Source: a virus. From it: DNA of 64,000 nucleotides. A program made the position numbers and the translations under genes. This document shows, one piece after another, positions 5,901-17,900 of this stretch. The notes under the pieces were generated by a model. That model ran no database searches. It was not told where the DNA came from and saw only the letters and a program-made list of their open reading frames with translations. Location: the IMG/VR virus record IMGVR_UViG_3300002461_001229. One strand, given 5' to 3'. Positions within the stretch are counted from its first letter, which is position 1; each line of letters begins with the position of its first letter.

Positions 5901-8900
5901 AACTTCTTGCGACGGCCGGTAACTTTTCGCGAGGTCCGGATGGCGTCCTCGGACCCGGCAAGCTCTTGCTTGAGCGCGTCGAGCTGTCGCTGCAGCGATT
6001 CCATTTGACGACGGAAAGCCTCATGCTCAGCGAGGTCAACTTCTGCCTTCCCGGCCTTTTCCTCGATCCGGCGAATGATGTCGGCCGGCAGATCGTTCCC
6101 GACGCCGTGGCGGTCCTGGTACGTCTTTTGGGCGACGGCGATCAGTCCGTCCGTTGTCTTGAGGATCACGCCTGCCGCCCGGATGAAGCGGCCGGCACGG
6201 ACCATCTTCATTGCCAGATGGACGCCGAGGTCGATTGACACGCGGCGAAGCTTGGCAGCCTCGTCCGGTTTCGTCGCCTCGATGCGGGTTGCTTCTTCAC
6301 GGAGCGACTGCTGGATGGAGAACGCGGCGATCGCGTGATGAACGTCGGGGCTTTCCGTGTTCTTGAGGATCTTCAGCACTTCCTCGGTGCTGTTCTCGGT
6401 GAGCATCCGCTTTGCCGCGGCCTGAGCTGCCCGGTCGCTGAACACCGTGTAGATCACATCGTCGGCAGCGATGCCGGCCGCACGCTCGGTGCCGGGCAGG
6501 CTGGCAAGTTCGGTTTTGGAGCGGACGCCGGGGAACTGCTTGGTTTCCGGGATCTCGGACGCGTCGCCGGCTACTTTGCTTTGGGTTTTGGGCTCGAATC
6601 CTTCGAGGTCGTAGGGCTTTGCTCCTTGCTCAGCATCAGGTCGTGGCGCTTCTTGAACTCCGCCAGACGCTCCGCTCGGCTTGCCTTTGGCATTTCCTTG
6701 CGTATCTCGGCCATCAGGTCGGCCGTCTGTGCCAGCATCGACCTCTTTTCGGGCTGCGGCGAGAACTCTTTGGGTTGCTTCTTGGACATGTTCAATCTCC
6801 TCAAATCGACGGAGTGCCGCCTCAACGGCACGCTCAGCGTCCTCATCGGACTTGCCCTCTTTCTTCGTGTCAGCATAGACCTTGTCGGCGAACGACTCAA
6901 GAAACTCGAACAAGTATTCCTGCCCCTCGTCCTTGGTCAGGCCGAGCTCTTCCCAGCTTCCCTCGGCGACCCACGCAGCGACCTCCTCGCGAACGAGAGC
7001 TTTGCTCAGAGCCTCAGCGTTCGCCTTGCTCATGTTGGCGGTTTGGCGAAGCCGCTCGGGGCTGTACTCGGGTTGCTGCGAGAAGAAGCTGTCCCACGCT
7101 TTCCGGACCTGCGGCATCTTGTCGAGCTCGGCCGGGCGTGCATGGCGTTTGGTCAGGTGCTTCTCGACCGAACCGAGATAGACCGCCTGGTGGAAGATCT
7201 CCTGCGGCAGCTTGGCATCGTACACGTAGAACACCGCGGTCTGCTGTCCGGCTTTGCGTGCGTCAGCGATGTCGTTGGCAAGGCCGCTCAGCATAGCGTC
7301 CGCGGCCGGATGCCCCGTTTCGGCCGCGTTGACGGCGGCGGCCATTAACGCCTGTTCGACCTTGATCAGTTTCGCGGCATCGGTGAACAGCCCGAGAAAC
7401 GCCGGATACGTGCTTTCGTCGCCGACCTTTCGCTTCCCTGCCTCGATATCGACCTGCTCGAAAGCCCGGCGAAGCAGTTCCATTGCCGGCAGATTGAGCT
7501 TCACGCGGTCACCGCTGCGAGTGGCTTCCACCATCGGCACGACGTCCTCGATATCGAGCGTCTTGAGGATCTTGATCGCCTGTTTGCGATTTTCTTCCTC
7601 GATCGAATACATCGGCTGCTCATCGGTCGCGAGAGCTTCGCGGAGCGGATCGGTAATGCCCATCGTCCAGACCGGATGCGTCTTACGCCGGAATACCTCT
7701 TTGGCTTCCTTGATGTACTGTTCCGCCGCCTCCCGCGTCAGGAAGGTGCCGCGGTAAGCCGGCAGGCCGGTCGCCGAATCGGTCGCCGTGACCTTGAAGC
7801 GATGCAGGTGCGGAGCGGGGTTGACCAGCTCCAGCTCCAGCTCCTCGACGCGGAAGTCGGTCAGCTTGAGATAGGGATCGTAAGAGATCTCGCCGTTTTC
7901 GACCTTTGCCGCATACCGCCCATAGATCTTCTTCATGTGGGCCGGAATGACCTTGTCGTACAGGTTGCGGAGCGAATCGCCGCCGATCTTTAGCCCGTCG
8001 CCCTCGATGGTGCCGCTTGTCTGTTCGAGTATCTGATTGGCGAGAGCCTTCGGAAACACCTCGGTCAGCTTCCGGTCAACGAACTTGTCCTCCGACGAAT
8101 TGATGATGGTGCCGTGCGGCCCCGCGGTGATCCTGATCGGATCGCGGTCGCCCTTTGCCGTTACGCGGATAAGCGACTGCCCGGAAAGGTTCTTGCTGAA
8201 CTCTATCCGGTCGACCGTTTTCTCGATCGGGTAGCGGGCAAGCTGCTGTTCGCCGGTCGTCCAGGCGACGGCATCAAGCCCTTGGTCGATCGCGTACTGC
8301 ATCGCGTACTTGAGCCCCATCTGCTTGTGGTACTTCTGCAGGACCGCGGGCATCTTCGCCATGTTGTCCTCGTCCGGCCCCTGAACCTCGTGGACCATCA
8401 GCGCGCGACGGCCATCGTCGAGCGTGACCTTGTCCATCCGGATGCGGACGACCGGGTTCTTGACGTCGGCATACTCGGGATGCCCGTCGATCCAGCCGCC
8501 CTCTGCGAACGGAGCGGTGAGGAACATTTCCTTGTAGTCCTCACGCGAAGCCGGGAACGGTTCGGCATAGCCGCGGAACTTGGCCGAGTCCTGATCGCCG
8601 TCCCAGCCGAGCGCGAGCGGTTCGACGACGATCTTGCTGGCCCGGATCTTCTTGAGCAGCTCGTCCTTCGTGATGGATCTTGCCCCGAGGTCCGCTTGCA
8701 GCTGGACGAACACATCCAGCAGGGTGTGATCAAGCTCCTCCGCGCGGATGCCGGGCAGCTTATTGATCACGTTCATTACCTGATCGACCGAGAACTTCTC
8801 TTGCTTGAGCCCTTCGACCGCCCGCTCGAGCCCGGAGTAGAACCGGACCTCTTTTCGTGCCGGTTCGTAGATCGAGAACATCGGCTGCCCTTCGTCCATG

Positions 8901-11900
8901 ACCGATTGCTTCATCGCCGGCGTGATGTCGACGGAGTGAAGCGACTCATACTTCGTGCCGAGCAGATATGCGGTCAGCTCGTCAACACTCATCGCCCTGG
9001 CATCCGCTTCCGAAATATCTCTACCGGTGGAAACAAAATCGTTCAATTCGCGAATACCAATGGCGTTGCGGGTAAGAAAATCATCAGCTACCTTTCGCAG
9101 CTCGTTCCGGTCGCGCTGCCCACCGAGCGTGCTGCGCTCGTCGTTGATAGTAGGTATTTCTGTCCGGCCAACCTTCGCCCCCCACTTCTTCACGTACTTG
9201 CTCACAAAGCCCGGGACCATCTTGTCGTAGAAGCCGCGCATACCCTCGCCGCCGATTTCGACCTCGGCGATGTCCTCGATAAGGACGTACTGTTCGCTGA
9301 GGATCTTATCGGCGATCGCCTTTGGAAGAACTTCTGACAAGTGTTCTCCCTCGGTCTTTAGCAAAGCGTCCGGAGCTGAGATCACAACACCGTTCTCGGG
9401 GTCCACCTTTAGATACAGGTCGCCGCCGTCTCGCCGCAGGGTGATGTGGAGATACTCCTGGTCCGGCCTTGTCGGATGGTTGGAATCGAAATGGTCAATG
9501 CCCGACTCGATCTCATCGACCACCTTCGACAGGCTCCACCGTTTGTTCTGCTGCTTACCGGTCGTCCAGGCAACGCGATCGTAGCCTTCTTCGACCGCTC
9601 TGCGGAGCATCTTCTTGAACGCCAGCTCGTGCCAGGACTTCTTGAAAGGAGCATCGGGAATTGCGGAAAACTTGCCACGCCACGATTGCTTAGCAGCTTC
9701 CGCCGCTCGTTCTTTTGTTGGGCCGTAGCCAATAATGTCGCCGTGAGGTGACGAAATCGCAGCTTTCCATTCCCCCGACGCAACACCTTCCGTGGTGGTC
9801 CACTCAAAGACGGGCTCGGGCATTTTTGTGTTGTAGCCCTGTTTCCTTCCGCGTTGGTGCCAATCGCTCTGAATCTCCTCGATCACGAATACACGCTTCC
9901 CATCGGCGTCGATGCGTTCGGTCGCCCGCACCCAAAACAGGATGTTTGGCATTCCGCCGAAGTGGCCGGTGGTGAACGCAGGGCTGTTCGCGTCGTTGCC
10001 GAGGTCGATGTCCGTAAGCCTGTCAAACTCGGCCTGTTCCGCCTCCGTCCAATTTTGCCACACCGCTTCTCCGCTTCCGTATTTCGCGGCGAGCTCATCG
10101 CGATACTTCATCCGCAACATCGAATACTGCTGCGGCAGGGTGAAGACGAATTCGCGGTAGTTACTGTGAGGTCCTGAGAGTCGCCAATCCGGGTTGTCGT
10201 ACTGAAGAGCTCCGGTAGCCGGGTCCTGTTCGTCCATCGCACCGTCAGCTCCGCGGGCTTCGCGAGACGCCATTCGCAGGTTGTCCCATGCTTCTTCCAA
10301 CTCTTCGTAGTCGTCTTCCTCAATGCCCCAATACTCTTCACTGCTGGCCCCGATCACGCTTGTTAAGGCTTCGTCAAGATCGTCGTCTTGGTCGGCGCGG
10401 TTGAGAAGGTCGTTTATGAGTTGCTGCCGAGTTGCTTCCACGGTTGCCGGTATTATGTCCCACGTGTCGAGGTCGAACATCTCGGCGAGCTCCTCCCGAG
10501 CCGCCTCGTGGCGCTCGTCGACGTCGGTCGAGTTGCGGTCGGCCGGCGAGCGTTCGTCGCGTTCACGCTTGCGAAGCACCTTTTCCTCGATCTGGATACG
10601 GGCGTCTCGCATGAATTCGAGCATCTCGTCCTTCGTCACGGTCCGCTTGCCTTCAAGCCACTCATCGACGCCGAGCCATTCCACTTCCTCGCGCTTGATG
10701 CCCGGACCTTCGAGGATCTTCCGCACCTGATCGGCCGGAGCACGATTCGGCATCTTCGTTTCGATCGCTCGTTCCGCGGCCGAGTAAAACGCAGGAGCGG
10801 CTGCCGGTTCGGCGATGGAGAGCATCGTCGAATCACCTTCTGCTTCGGCATTGAACGCGTCCCGAGCTTCCGGGCTGCGGAAATGGAAGCCGGGGATCGC
10901 TCCGTCCTTCTTGAAGCTCGAATAATAGCCGCCGTGCGTGCGGGCGATGGCCGAGATCCGCTTGAACTCGTCCTTGTTCATTTTCGGACCGGTCGGCTTG
11001 GCGACGTAGATCATGTGACCCTGCGTCGTATGCTGAAATTCACGAAGATCGAACGCGTGCTGGCCGTGCGGAATCGCTGCGGCCCGCCCCGATGCGTTTT
11101 GCTGTGCCCTGGCTTCCCGCTCGGCCTCGAACTTTGCTTCACGTTCGATCGCTTCCTGCTCGGCCCTGCGGGCAGCCTCGCCGCCATACGGACGTGGCGG
11201 GATCGTCAGCTCCTCGAACTCGTCGAACAGCTCGTCGAACGTGCGGACGTCAGAAAGATCGAGCAGCCCCCACGGTTCGTGGAGTTCAAGTTCCTTCCCG
11301 GCAAGTTTGTCGAGCACGACCATCCGCGTTTTGACGCCGGTGCCGGCACGTTCGAAGGTCTTCGTCGGCAGCGAGATCTCGGCGGTCTTGACGACGCGAG
11401 TGCTTGCCGGCACTATCCTCGGACCTGCAATGACCTTGTCGAACCGGTCGGAGCCTCTCAGCTCCATTGTCATTGGGCTGCCCTGGGCGTCGGTGCCGTG
11501 GAGTGTTGCGATGAACTCAAAACCGCGGCGGACGGTCTCAGCTCTGGTGACGCCGTAGATAGTCCCTTTGTCGGTGACTTGGACGGTGTCGCCCTCGTAA
11601 AGCGAGAGCGGCGCAAAAGTGTTCGGATCCGATCGCACTATCAGCTTGCGGGCCTTTTCCGTCTGCCCCGCCATCAGCTGCTCAAGCCGCTTGTCGGCGG
11701 CCGGGCCTTCCGGCAGTATCGCCACGACGCGGCCATTGGTTCGCAAATGCTCGAACGCTTTCGCGAGGTGCTCCATCGCGGTCTTGCCGCCCTTTCCGTA
11801 CGGCGGATTCATCAGGACGACGTCGAACTTGTTCGCGCGAACGTCGAGCGATTCGAAGACGTCCTGCTCGAAGCGGTTGGTGTCGGACGGCGGTATATGC

Positions 11901-14900
11901 AGCCGTAGCCTGGTCATCAGCTCCTGCGAAGGTTCGATCACGGTGTTCCGTGAGGTCTGCGGCAGGAAGCGGGCGATCGCCCCGTGGCCGGCACTCGGTT
12001 CGAGGACGCTGTGGCCAGCAGCGATATCGGCAAACTCGACCATCTTCAAGCCGAGCGGTTCAGGTGTCGGATAGTAGTCCTCGCCCTCGGCCGATTTGGT
12101 CTTTGAGGTCTTCTTCTGCTGGCCGAAGAAGAACGTCTTCGCCCGCTCATATTCGGATATGGCCTGCTGCCCCGCCCGGTCACGCTCCTTGCCCCCGACG
12201 CCGTCCAGCTCGGTCGGCATCGGATCGGTCCGCGGTTCGAGGAACGAATCGATTATCGACTGCCGGAGAGCTCGGGCCTCTTCGCCGAGCGAGAGGTTCT
12301 CGGCGGTCGAGGAGCGTTCTGCCATGGTCTGTGCGAACGCGGTCGCCTCCCATAGCGTTCCGGTCGTGAAATAGAACATCGGAGCGTTGGTCTTGGTGCC
12401 GAGACGGTAGATGCGGCCTTCCTTCTGGATGGCCTCGACCGGACGCGACGGCAGCCCGAGGTCGATCATTACCCGCTGATGCTTGCCGGTCGTGTCGTGA
12501 AGGCTGATCCCCGCCTGCCCCTTGTCGGCCTGGACGAGGATGATATCGATCTCGGAGTTATCCGTGTTGAAGATCGCCATCGACTCGCGGTTCGCTTTTT
12601 TCGACTGCGTACCGTTGAGCTGCACGTGTTGCAGGCTCGTGGCTCCACCCTTGAACGATTCGGCGAAAGTCTCGATCGGCGATTCCAGCCCTTCGAATGG
12701 CAGAGCGATCAGGTCCGGCCGTTTTCGCGTGAATTCGGCGTAGAGATCTTTCAGATTGACCTCGATGGTCTTGCCGCCGACGCTGATCAGCGTCTTTTCG
12801 TTCGGCACCTTCGGCTTGAACGGATGGAAACCGCCGCCGACGTTGAACTTGTGGAAGACGACGACCTTGCGGCCGGCTTCGACGTGGGCGTCAATGATCG
12901 GCACCGCCGCCTTGGCCTTGATGGCTTCGAGCAGGAACATCCGGTTGTGGTAACTGAAGCTCTTATTGACGATCTCGGCAAGCGGCCGGAACCTTCCGCC
13001 CTCGGCTTCCTGCAGCCACTTCAGGCCGTCGTCGATCTTCTGGCCAATGCCCTCTTTGATCAGCAGGAACTCGCGGGAATAGTCCTGGTCGATGCCGAGC
13101 ATACGGCCGCTCAGGACACGCTGCTGTTTCAGCCACGTGTTGAACTGCCGCTCCATGATGTCCGTATCTACCTCCGGCCCGGGTTCGGTCAGCTTGTTGT
13201 ACCGCATCCGGTAGCCGAAGTGCTCGATCATGAACGCTTCTTGGTTGTTCGGCTCGTTGTAGTGGCGCGTCCGTCCGAGCTGGTCGTCCGGGACCTTTCC
13301 ATCGTCGTAGTCGAACAAATAGCCTTCCGCGTAATCGACCGATTTCCGATAAGCGAACGGCGTCGCCGAAAGCATCAACGCCTTGCCCTTTGGTTCGTCG
13401 GCAATTCGCCGGTCCCACTCGGCTACGGCGGCATTTCCGATCTTCTCGATCTGCTTGTTCAGCGTAGCGACCGCATCTTCGAGTGAACGCAGCTCCTCGC
13501 GGGCCTCCTTCGCGCGATCGGCCATTTGCGGGCCTTCGTCCTCGTAGCGCTCGAGAAGAGCCCGTACGACCTCGATCCGGGCTTCGGCCTGTTCGCGTTC
13601 GGTGACCTCCTTGATGGTCGCCTGCCGCCAATAGTCCATTTTCCCGCGTTTGTGCAGTGTCATCGCCCGCAACGCCTTCGACGCCCCGGTCGGCTTACCG
13701 TCCTTGTTCGACGAAAGCGTATGAGCCTCGTCTGCCACGATCAGGTCCCATTGACGCTTGATCAGCGACGGGTTCTGCTGCATGTTCGCGTAGGTCGTGA
13801 TAACGATGCCCTCAGCGCCGTTGTCTTGCGTGTCCGCGAGCTGCCGGACCTGCAGCCCAAAGTTCGTGGCGGCCGAGATCCACGCGTTCGCGATCTCCTG
13901 CGACGGCACGACAATGAAGATATTGTCCTTGCCCTGCATCGCCATTCGCTTGACCACTCCGAGCCCGGAGAAGGTCTTGCCGGTGCCGGTGCCGTTGGTC
14001 AGCATCACGCCGTTGCCATCGCGGACGAATAGGGCATCTTCGACGAAACGAACGTCCTCGTGCTGCTCCTTGAAGAGCACCGGAACGGTCGCCTGAATGT
14101 TGGCCAGGTCGCCGATCTTGACCGATTTACCTTCGGCAGCCTTCTGCTGTTCGAGGCGTTCCGCTGCGTCCTTCGATTCCGGCTCGGGAACCGAATCAAT
14201 GATGTCCTCGGGTGTGGTCAGGTCCTGCCCGATCACTCCGTCGCGGATGTCGGCGACGAACTGCACGATATACGGCTTCATCAGCCGCAGCGTCTCGTTA
14301 TCGTAGCCCTCGGCCCGCATCTGGTCGATCAGCAGACGCATCGCGTCGCCGATGTTTTGAGCGGCATCCTTGAAGTGGTTGTAAGCCTCTAGGAAGTGTG
14401 GCTTAGCGGCCTGATACGTCTCATCGTCGAACGCCGGCACGGTCGAGGATTTGAACTTCTTCGGATCGAACAGCTTCCCGAGCCCCTTGATGGCCTCGTC
14501 GATGCCTTTGCCGGTCGACTCTTTGGCAGATGTGAGCTTGTCGGCAAACTCTTTCAGGATGTATCCGTCGTAGGCTTCAATGCGACCGCCCGGATAGTGC
14601 TCTAACTGCCTTTGAGCGATCGCCGGATCAACGATATTGCCCACCTGCTCGACGCCGTTCGCGTCATAGACGCGATACTTTGTGATCGGTACTGAGCCTC
14701 TCGGGATTGAGGTCTGCTTTGCCGCAGCCCTTTGCTTTTTCGTCGTGCCGCGAGATTCGGCACTGCGGTTGGCCTCGATCTCGTATTCCCAGACGTTTTC
14801 GTTTGAGACTTGATAGATGGTGTGCGTGTTATCGGTCAGGCCGAGTTCGGCAGCACGGTCAGCAAGATGCTTGATCGCCCCACCGACCGCCGCAATGGCG

Positions 14901-17900
14901 ATGTCAGACTTTGCGACCTCGTCGCGGCTCAGGCCGCTCGGTGCAACTGCGAGGAAACCGTGCCCGGCTTCGATCGCTTTTCGTACTTTCTTTTGGTTGC
15001 CGAGATAAACCGGCTCGGTGCGAGATTGTTCGCCAAAAAGGTTGGTGGTCGGGGCTTCGCCGGCAGGCGGCACCAGCTCGTCGAATAGGGCTCCGAGATC
15101 TACTTCAGTTCGCGGAACAGCTTCTCCGCCAGCGTCGCTTGCTGCTTGCTGATCATCGGAGATTCCTTCCTGAGATACTCCATCGCCTCGTCCAGCGTCT
15201 CGATCGACGGCATCGGGACGCTCGGCTGCTTCCTCGCGTACATTGCTATCGCCTGGTGTTCCTTCCAGAGCGGAGCTATCTCCAAAAAGGCTCTGCTCAC
15301 TTCCGGGTTCAATCCTTTGGCCCGGAGGCTTCGCATCGCTCTCTCGCAGGCTATCCGCATCTCCGGTTCGCTCAGTCGGAACATCGTCTTCCCGAACTTC
15401 GACATCATCGGTTCCGTCCTCGCTATCCGGTTCCAGATCTCGCTCGAAATAGTCATCATAAACCTTTGCTCCTTCCGGGATTCTAACATCAAAGCCGAAG
15501 TAGTAATAAAAATCGTCCTCCGTGACGACGTATTCGCCCGGTGCTTCGAACTCACTGAACTCGCCAACATGCTCAATTACGACATCCACCATCGGCGGAA
15601 GATCGCCCTCGCCGGCATAGACCTCCTCGACGTAAACAAAATCATCGTTCCGTCCGATCACATAGGCACCGCGGAACGCCGGTTCAAGCTTTTTGTTTTG
15701 TTCCCATTTGTGCGTGTAGCCGTAAACATCGATCAGCTGCTGGAGCGTGACCTTGCCGTCCTCTAAACCGCCCTCTATCTCGGCAACATTTGCGGCAACT
15801 TCTGAGGCGGTTTTCGCATTTCGGAGCAGCTCGTCGGCCTGTCTCCCGAATTTGTTCGAGGCGATCAGGTCGTAGATCTTCCGTTGAGCTATCGTCAGCC
15901 CCTCGCGGCCGATCGCGGCTTGCCGGACGAATTCGTCTAGGTTCGCACCGCGGAGCTCGGCCTCGCGGATCCACTCTATCGCGGTCGCGGCATCGGCGAT
16001 CAGCTGCTGGACCGCCTCGCTGTCCGTGTCTTCGCCCGACCAGCGGGAAATAATGCCCTGTGCGGCCGAGGAAGCCTTCGGCGTCGCTTTGTCGTTCCGC
16101 GTGTCGTAGAGCAGCTCCCCGATCTCCTCGCCGAACGTCTCAATGACCTGCCGGCGTGCTTCGGTTTCTGCCTTACTGAGCAGCGATTCCTTGATCGCCG
16201 CTTTGGAGTTATCCTCGGCTTGCTTTGGCTCGATCGCGGTCGGGCCGTCCTGAGCGAACAGACCGGTGTTGTCGGCTTCGAGGCCGAACAGGTCGGTCTG
16301 CTCGGCGCCGCGGAGCGCTTCGAGCGACGGTGGTTGTGCCTCCGGCGTCGCGGCATTGTCCGCCTGGTCCGTCTCACGCACCTCTTCCTTCGAGGGGAAA
16401 TACCAATCGAATTTTTGCTTTCCGGCCTTGAACGGAGGCGTGTTGCCGAGTGCCTTTTCGAGCTCGTTGATGTTCGCCTTCGCCCATCCGATATGGGTCA
16501 GGACGAGCTTCATGTTGACCGGTGCGCTGTTCCAGAGGTACTGATCAAGCTCCTCGGTCGCTTCCGGATTTTTCAGATCGGCCAAATTCGCGTTATAGCG
16601 ATTTGTCAGCCGCTCAAGTTCTGCGCGTTCCGCCGCCAATGCTTCTTCATTCGAGGCGTATCCCTGCCCTTTTTTCTTTGGAAACTTGCCTGCGTTATAG
16701 AACGGGTTCTCAAAAGCAAGCACATCGTCCAATGCCGGGACCTGAGCCGCCACCGAATTCCGGAAATCGCGGTGCCGTTCGCGTTCGGCCTGCCGTTCTG
16801 CCTCGGCTTCCTTGCTCAGCTCTTCGTCTTCTTGCTTTTCTTGCTCGGCAAAGAGGCCGGACGTGTCGGGGTTGCCGACTTCGCCTTCCGGTTCTTCCTT
16901 GAAGATGCTCGTTTCGCTGCCTTGATCGCTATCCGGTGCGCCTGATCCGTCAGGTTCGGGAAGCGTGTCCGCAGCTCCTCCATCCGTTTCTCCCCTATCT
17001 CGGGCGATTTCGAGGATCTCGCCGATGATGTCTTCGATGATGTCCGGGTCAAGTCCATAAATTCCTCCAAAGTCTTTGAGTATTTCGATCTCCGCATCGC
17101 TCACGCCTGCGGACCGCTCGAGCTCGGCGAGTATCGGTGCGACGGCGGGATCCGTCATGAATCGCTCGATAACACCGACCAGGCCGTATTCCTCTCGCGG
17201 CATCGTCATCAGCTGGTCGACCGCGGCCCAATCCATCGGCCCGCCCCACGTTTCCTCGGAATCTTCAGCGTAGGCCGCGAGGTACGCCCGGCTCATTGCT
17301 GCCCGCTTTTCCGGCGTGTCAGTCAGGCTGCGGTTTTCGGGATCGGCGGTCAGAGCCCGCGTCGTGTCGGACGTTTGCGGAGCCGTTACGAACGTACGTT
17401 TTATCCGTTGTATCGTATCGAATGCTTCGCCGAGAAGATCGTCCACGTGATCCTCTAGCAGCACATCCATGTTGATGCCGTCGAAGAATCGCGGGTCGGT
17501 CAGGCGTTCGATGACGTCATACAGCGAATGAATGTTCTCGTCCGTAGGCTGCTCCAGCAGTTTGTACTGTTGGGCAGCCTTGACGAGCTGTTGAAGCACG
17601 TCCTCCGTGAACTGCACCCATGCCGTTTCCTGCGAGTCCATGTAGGACGTGATTTCGGCTTGCAGTTCGCGGATCCTCGCACGCAGCGGCTCCCGCTGGG
17701 CCTTTGCCGCCTTGCTCTGGCCCTTGATAGCGTTCACCTGGGGTTTGATCTTCTCGATCTCCTCCAACTGCCCTGCCGTCGCGTCCGGGTCGATCTCGAA
17801 GGTCTGGAGCGTATCAAACAGGTCGCCGATTGTCGCGGCCGTGTCGCTGAACAGGTCCTCAGCGGTCCGGCGATTCGATTCGGTCGGCTTTTCTGTTTTG

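Follow-up and report, generated by a model that had tools for sequence, protein, structure and literature searches.

Evidence for a 119-codon gene overprinted in the +1 frame of a giant DarB-like phage gene

We analyzed a stretch of viral DNA of 64,000 nucleotides (nt) from the IMG/VR record IMGVR_UViG_3300002461_001229 (the whole stretch is called the window here), in which a 119-codon open reading frame (ORF) at 15100–15459 on the minus strand lies wholly inside a longer ORF of the same strand and in a different frame. The longer ORF, the host gene, encodes a giant protein that we take to be a DarB-like polyvalent virion protein by analogy with annotated phages. The short ORF very probably codes for a real protein and is overprinted, in the +1 frame, on this giant gene. 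Its start at 15459 is offset by 8386 nt from the start of the giant gene, a distance equal to 1 modulo 3 that places it in the +1 frame. On the minus strand a Shine-Dalgarno (SD) sequence, AAGGAG, is followed by a 9-nt spacer (15460–15468) and by two consecutive ATG codons (15454–15459). A sequence-only reading of the window had proposed a real 119-amino-acid (aa) gene here, nested in-strand; the coordinates, the frame and the AAGGAG, 9-nt and ATG arrangement agree with the translation and with the offset, and the peptide that it quoted is the computed translation of the ORF. Its description of the host-frame peptide over the same bases as a D/E/G/R-rich linker also stands; this peptide has few hydrophobic residues and is predicted to be disordered. 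The positions of the nested gene and of the host-gene features are given in Table 1.

Table 1. Features of the nested ORF and of its giant host gene in the window (position 1 is the first letter of the window).
Feature	Coordinates	Strand	Basis or remark
Nested (overprinted) gene, probable	15100..15459	minus	119 codons + stop at 15100–15102; +1 frame of giant gene
Shine-Dalgarno AAGGAG	15469..15474	minus	9 nt 5' of nested ATG
+1-frame stop-to-stop open run, 158 codons, enclosing nested gene	15100..15576	minus	ORF list and translation
Host-frame linker, about aa 2790–2916 of giant protein	15100..15480	minus	same bases as nested gene
Host gene, putative DarB-like polyvalent protein, 6951 aa	2990..23845	minus	ORF, Pfam and neighbouring gene order
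SNF2/ResIII-type superfamily 2 (SF2) helicase region, about aa 3259–3845	12311..14071	minus	Pfam ResIII, SNF2-rel_dom and Helicase_C_4; GTGTGKT motif at aa 3285
Methyltransferase domain (small-domain type), about aa 3945–4060	11666..12013	minus	Pfam MTS, E = 1.4e-5

The sequence-only reading placed the gene just upstream of a helicase-methyltransferase module, which is correct in direction and holds less well in distance. The ORF is upstream of the module, but in the window it ends about 1 kb before the helicase motif, with a domain of about 325 aa in between, whereas the nested ORF and the helicase abut in most relatives. A helical domain that starts with 'KPHF' is found between the nested gene and the helicase in the window and upstream of the nested gene in most relatives.

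The length of the ORF alone is weak evidence for a gene. The +1 frame remains open for 39 codons 5' of the nested ATG, and the resulting 158-codon run ranks 6th of the 184 +1-frame runs in the giant gene (P about 0.015). The weight of the case comes from composition, where the evidence is much stronger than that of ORF length, and from comparative data.

The first searches, a word-based one for homologues and a viral scan with the single protein, returned nothing. A tblastn search of the 119-aa product against GenBank phages matched Ruegeria phage 45A6 (E = 4e-7) and Vibrio phages D274 and 1.232.O. All three matches are in the +1 frame of an annotated giant coding sequence with the start methionine aligned, and in each a conserved 'IWN.I' motif follows this methionine and AAGGAG or AAGGAA precedes it. 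The two Vibrio phages have a +1-frame stop four codons before the nested ATG, and in these low-GC genomes the nested ORF is the longest +1-frame run. With a more central family member as the query, Pseudomonas phage Skulduggery and Klebsiella phage vB_KpnP_ZX1 were found as well, again in the +1 frame of the giant gene, giving five GenBank carriers. The nested gene is annotated in none of the five, and in Skulduggery and vB_KpnP_ZX1 the giant gene is the sole annotation under the match, in line with the expectation of the sequence-only reading that standard annotation would miss it. Pattern scans added four more IMG/VR contigs, metagenome contigs and one contig of a metagenome-assembled genome with the same arrangement. 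The family is absent from phages P1 and Bcep22.

To survey the locus, we searched IMG/VR with the N-terminal region of the helicase, found a relative in 351 contigs, and scanned all six frames of the best 80 of these with a profile of the nested family. A family match is present in 79 of the 80 loci (E = 1e-15 to 1e-47). All 79 matches are on the strand of the helicase, in the +1 frame relative to it and fully nested, meaning that the host frame is open for at least 673 nt upstream where the upstream end lies within the fetched DNA and, at the other loci, open as far as the fetched DNA reaches, usually for more than 3.6 kb. In every case a start codon (76 ATG, 2 TTG and 1 GTG) is located at profile position 1 or at most two codons from it. 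An SD-type motif occurs 3 to 12 nt before the start in 71 of the 79 loci, and was read by eye in each of the first eight; a +1-frame stop is found immediately 5' of the start in 16. The gene is upstream of the same helicase module in all 79 carriers, with a protein identity of 24–36% across phages. The only locus of the 80 that does not have the nested gene (L100) also does not have the acidic G/R/D-rich linker of about 120 aa (L100:3300-4200), and its 'KPHF' domain abuts the helicase directly. In tblastn and profile searches alike, homologous giant genes encode the product in their +1 frame, with SD and start kept; the +1-frame stops in homologous linkers, or loss of the SD and ATG, that the sequence-only reading had named as speaking against the gene were looked for and not seen.

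The composition of the overlap singles out the same region. The G+C content at third codon positions (GC3) of the giant frame is 0.74 over the whole gene and falls to 0.39–0.55 over the nested ORF, where GC3 of the +1 frame is 0.75–0.84. Only two stretches of the 20.8-kb gene have a giant-frame GC3 below 0.56, and the nested ORF is in the larger one. Across 69 distinct loci (mean GC 0.60), GC3 within the overlap is 0.78 for the nested frame and 0.40 for the host frame, compared with host-frame values of 0.65 and 0.75 in the two flanks. In these loci the host-frame peptide over the overlap contains much G, R, A, D, S and P and few hydrophobic residues. The per-frame scan suggested in the sequence-only reading points to the nested region both in the window and in its relatives.

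We counted substitutions by codon position in 59 moderately diverged sequence pairs, which are not phylogenetically independent of one another. In the overlap, 52% of substitutions fall on host position 1, which is nested position 3, as compared to 22–30% in the flanks, and host position 3 takes 21% of the changes in the overlap as compared to 41–60% in the flanks. Individual pairs exhibit the same reversal. The changes at host codon positions 1, 2 and 3 number 9, 6 and 2 in the overlap of L002 and L003, versus 20, 6 and 86 in one flank and 15, 6 and 69 in the other; for L001 and L007 they number 39, 23 and 16 in the overlap versus 48, 43 and 124 in the flanks. The trend also holds between the window and its closest relative (L019, 61% protein identity; Fisher P = 0.02). 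From ten pairs, an OLGenie-style count gave an analogue of the ratio of nonsynonymous to synonymous substitution rates (dN/dS; here the NN/SN ratio) of 0.33 for the nested frame (95% confidence interval (CI) 0.22–0.45) and of 1.14 for the host frame (95% CI 0.94–1.37). This frame-specific test, which the sequence-only reading had proposed, shows purifying selection on the +1 frame only.

The host frame is nevertheless kept open. None of the 69 distinct loci has a host-frame stop in the overlap, while the host frame stays open in about 21% of codon-shuffled nested genes, so that about 14 open loci of the 69 would be expected; the third frame contains 9.4 stops on average. The codon-position bias, the dN/dS analogues and the openness of the host frame therefore indicate that both frames are maintained, the nested one for the protein that it encodes and the host one just as an open, disordered spacer. 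As the host frame is open yet its sequence drifts, the linker is essentially a carrier for the nested gene.

We built a family profile from nine nested proteins and searched it in a library of 1.84 billion proteins in clusters at 50% identity. The profile matched 534 clusters, 388 of them at E = 1e-10 or better, and most of the matches are proteins of about 120 aa aligned from residue 1; the window protein itself matches over positions 1–120 (E = 1.1e-31). The clusters are mostly gene calls on short contigs with a truncated giant frame, and in two that were checked the giant frame is still open through the match. AlphaFold2 predicted a compact seven-helix domain from a 120-sequence alignment, with a predicted local distance difference test (pLDDT) score of 95 and a predicted template-modelling (TM) score of 0.86; with nine sequences the pLDDT was 63. 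The sole structural relative is UniProt I0KAZ8, an uncharacterized 130-aa entry of the AlphaFold database (TM score 0.87, 23% identity), and the predicted fold has no solved relative. I0KAZ8 has the same fold, and the 534 metagenomic 'hypothetical protein' clusters belong to the same family; none of them has a name, a Pfam family or a function, and on short contigs the nesting in a giant gene is invisible.

We expect the nested protein to come from ribosomes that initiate independently within the late mRNA of the giant gene, at the SD and ATG of the nested ORF, and not from frameshifting, because the SD and start are conserved and stops lie directly 5' of the start in many loci. Programmed frameshifts do occur in phage genes, and the 39 open codons upstream of the ATG in the window would leave room for a +1 shift out of the giant frame, yielding a truncated giant protein that ends in the nested domain and no free 119-aa protein. 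Such a shift is very unlikely: the +1 stop comes directly before the start in 16 of the 79 loci and within four codons of it in the two Vibrio phages, the start is at or near profile position 1 throughout with an SD in 71 loci, and most profile matches begin at residue 1 of proteins of about 120 aa. Less probable still is that the ORF is the fossil of an engulfed gene, a small free gene that was read through at a gene fusion and whose frame is no longer expressed. The genome-typical codon usage of the nested frame and the homologues that stand free or are fused outside giant genes would both fit this origin, but a dead frame would gain stops and lose its start, whereas all 79 ORFs and starts are intact (71 with an SD) and selection on the nested frame is measurable even in close pairs. 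Least probable of all, a chance ORF or compositional artefact of 60% GC DNA and of a D/E/G/R-rich linker with G or C at codon position 1, for which one could cite the five other +1 runs at least as long in the giant gene of the window and the high GC at position 1 expected of G, D, E and A codons, is refuted by the comparative data, in which the +1-frame protein is conserved at 24–36% identity between phages with long-diverged DNA, codon-position variability is reversed in the overlap, the nested dN/dS analogue is 0.33, the ORF is the longest +1 run in the low-GC Vibrio phages, and the family of 534 clusters folds at a pLDDT of 95. The core claim of the sequence-only reading, a real gene nested in-strand, is thus upheld by conservation, selection and composition.

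Several observations weigh against an overprinted, independently expressed gene or against assigning it a role. Apart from the non-independence of the sequence pairs, none of the RNA runs contains the nested region and no internal promoter was detected. Comparisons with the Protein Data Bank (PDB) gave no meaningful relative (Foldseek E at least 1.5; best Z of 4.8 in a wide VIA-align search), nor did structure searches of BFVD and the ESM Atlas. On the side of function, scans of Pfam, NCBIfam and PADLOC found no family match and PHROG none that was consistent, and the family is mostly acidic with a median isoelectric point (pI) of 4.9, in contrast to a pI of 9.6 for the window protein. Comparison with the small proteins Ulx, DdrA and Hdf of phage P1 gave hhalign probabilities of 0.09–0.13% (E = 0.44–0.61), and homology to them was rejected. 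Internal terminator-like sites are at chance level, and a feature search of the ESM Atlas returned nothing usable. A match of the window protein to phrog_7185 (E = 9e-4) was judged spurious, as it occurs in only one of nine family members. We also rejected an Ocr/ArdA-type DNA mimic, given the pI of the window protein and the lack of a PDB fold match at the best Z above, and a termination-reinitiation device for a helicase isoform, given that at none of the 79 loci does the host frame have an ATG in the 40 nt that precede the nested stop or in the 49 nt that follow it.

Overlapping genes are usually dated by codon usage typical of the genome, by a disordered and unconstrained peptide in the other frame and by free-standing homologues; by these three marks the nested frame would be the older and the linker derived. 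Proteins that arise by overprinting also typically have a new fold, however, so that either direction of origin is possible. The family is rare in cellular genomes, with one carrier among 401 genomes in each of two phyla sampled, in each case the genome already known, so that the sampling added no standalone contexts.

The host gene combines an SF2 helicase and an N6-adenine-type methyltransferase in one giant polypeptide (Pfam), as in DarB-like proteins. The C-terminal domain of the helicase is Strawberry-notch-like, and a ddrB-like ParB domain occupies aa 1429–1538. In the annotated Bcep22 and Skulduggery records an acyltransferase and virion structural proteins precede a giant 'DarB-like antirestriction' gene that is followed by lysis genes, and the neighbours of the giant gene in the window follow this order. 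Bcep22 also has a gene like a 3'-phosphoadenosine-5'-phosphosulfate (PAPS) reductase 5' of its giant gene; a PAPS-reductase-like gene beside the giant gene of the window had been noted in the sequence-only reading. A homologue of the giant protein, JC1 gp69, was detected in virions by mass spectrometry (PMC9144972), and only by analogy might the giant protein of the window be packaged in the virion and protect incoming DNA from Type I restriction. Pfam confirmed that the helicase precedes the methylase in the window, which according to the sequence-only reading differs from the order in P1 DarB.

The one robust clue to function is linkage to the helicase-methylase module. Whichever further domains a giant protein contains, the nested gene always comes directly before the SNF2-type module, and the relative that has lost neither helicase nor 'KPHF' domain but carries no nested gene also carries no linker, which we count toward this link. 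Since the nested gene is inherited together with this SNF2-type helicase and N6-adenine methylase, we tentatively propose, at somewhat less than an even chance, that its product is an accessory factor of the anti-restriction machine and might regulate it, help to assemble it or act as its partner. Co-inheritance also agrees with the suggestion of the sequence-only reading that the product may be a chaperone, inhibitor or packaging partner of the adjacent module. In Type I enzymes, as in the DarB-type dyad, an SF2 translocase is combined with an N6-adenine methylase. The methylases of polyvalent proteins have been placed in an EcoKI/TaqI-like family (Iyer et al., PMC5512222). Of six standalone homologues examined, two are directly upstream of Type I restriction-modification (R-M) operons on the same strand: P0047 precedes hsdR-hsdS-hsdM and P0144 precedes hsdM-hsdS-darT-macro-hsdR. 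That only two of the six adjoin an R-M system counts against the proposed function.

In the main alternative, the nested protein would be real and independent of the helicase-methylase, as a separate anti-defence or host-takeover factor housed in a disordered linker that tolerates it, a reading that we regard as possible but rather unlikely. It would suit a family of mostly acidic, small helical proteins (median pI 4.9), a placement relative to the neighbouring helical domain that varies between lineages, and the reuse of the domain in free-standing proteins of integrative elements, where it is N-terminal and fused to unrelated C-terminal regions. A single complex prediction for the nested protein with aa 3230–4095 of the giant protein lent no support to an accessory factor (score 0.00), though by the tool's own statement this is evidence neither for nor against binding. 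The independent role is harder to square with the position of the gene directly upstream of the same helicase module in all 79 carriers, at 24–36% protein identity, and with the two standalone homologues at the head of Type I R-M operons that encode the same two enzyme types. If the nested protein is an accessory factor, it could act in the producer cell, where it would keep the helicase-methylase destined for injection inactive or competent for assembly, or it could interfere with Type I enzymes of the host, and it would be an undescribed component of DarB-type anti-restriction with a new fold. A joint reading would have the disordered linkers of giant polyvalent proteins serve as carriers of whole additional genes. 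Here the gene would encode an old protein that folds by itself, whose frame dominates selection while the giant protein passes over it as a featureless spacer, and this protein would be dedicated to type-I-like translocase-methylase machines as their regulator or partner. We regard this joint reading as doubtful.

The Type I R-M operons headed by proteins with the nested-type domain are on cellular mobile elements (L113:8001-15895 and L108:8001-15565). One of them has a DarT-Macro (DarTG) pair between hsdS and hsdR, and the other is followed by a HEPN_AbiU2 gene. An integrase/HTH_17 island encodes a 566-aa protein (P0028; L022:3562-5262) with two nested-type domains and a C-terminal DUF6794. 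On a freshwater contig (L017:752-1876) a free-standing protein of 374 aa begins with the family domain; a stop is present in the usual host frame at the start of this gene, and the C-terminal part has a repeated helical motif containing Cys, Arg and Lys. On a metagenome contig (L112:3060-11840) the giant gene is split into many short calls (InPase, ResIII, Helicase_C) and the nested domain is the C-terminus of a 552-aa call, a fragmentation that probably reflects assembly frameshift errors and not biology.

Phage genes embedded out of frame on the same strand include Rz1 in Rz of lambda and B, K and E of phiX174. Rz1 inside Rz is a known embedded phage gene (PMC9409062), and the embedded Rz1 class was described in the Bcep22-like phage group in the JC1 paper (PMC9144972). 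Like these, the nested gene is complete, has its own start in another frame of the same strand, overlaps a frame that is also maintained, and belongs to a kind usually overlooked by routine gene callers. Unlike them, it resides in a disordered inter-domain linker of a giant, putatively virion-delivered polyvalent enzyme, its frame holds essentially all of the constraint while the host frame is just kept open, and its product, of an unrelated family, is a 120-aa globular protein of cytoplasmic type and no lipoprotein or lysis peptide. The Dar system of P1 resembles the present case in its large virion-packaged helicase-methylase with small accessory proteins (Ulx, DdrA and Hdf) encoded nearby, and the host gene here has the DarB-type domains together with the DdrB-like ParB domain; in P1, however, the accessory genes are separate and not overprinted. 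The giant protein also resembles the polyvalent proteins surveyed by Iyer, Burroughs, Anand, de Souza and Aravind (2017, PMC5512222) in its many domains, its methylase-helicase dyad and its ddrB-ParB domain. That survey treats the inter-domain regions as linkers, and in the present case one such linker also codes for a second protein; when the survey was searched for terms on overlapping, frameshifted or alternative-frame genes, none turned up. Neither the survey nor the literature on Bcep22-like phages nor full-text searches yielded any account of a gene within a DarB-like or polyvalent gene. Embedded out-of-frame genes are already known in phages, and this one is undescribed in the literature searched.

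With the nested gene, a large group of phages gains a protein that is widely conserved but unannotated. The group includes cultured phages of Pseudomonas fluorescens SBW25, Klebsiella, Vibrio and Ruegeria, and its largest gene has so far been read as a single product. Studies of DarB-like anti-restriction may have overlooked a component, and anyone who knocks out or truncates the giant gene would also remove a second protein without noticing. The locus is also an unusually clean natural case of overlapping genes, with constraint in the nested frame, a host frame that is open but drifting, and a non-carrier relative that is also without the linker. More generally, per-frame GC3 scans within giant phage genes can recover real genes that gene callers suppress.

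Two further +1-frame ORFs of the giant gene had been noted in the sequence-only reading, both on the minus strand. The region at 6571–6936 contains the only other stretch with a giant-frame GC3 below 0.56 (6745–6925); its +1 run has a GC3 of 0.73, compared with 0.53 in the host frame, and includes the 72-aa 'gene A' (ATG at 6789). The 'gene A' product (6571–6789) is of low complexity, and tblastn against GenBank phages gave it no match with an E value of 1 or less; a second nested gene at 6571–6789 is possible. The 93-aa ORF at 16816–17097 exhibits a weak frame bias (GC3 of 0.70, versus 0.56 in the host frame); its product had no tblastn match in GenBank phages, and this ORF so far has no support.

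Matches to the DNA of the window came only from metagenomes of activated carbon and drinking water, and partial ones from those of biofilters. The window lies on contig C3 of a 39-contig, 855-kb assembly rated 95% complete, in a class whose sampled genomes are 0.6–1 Mb, and the nested family was found in none of 400 other genomes sampled from the phylum of that assembly. With a GC content of 59%, the window looks like a Bcep22-type podophage contig, and it may be a phage of the small-genome host or a binning passenger.

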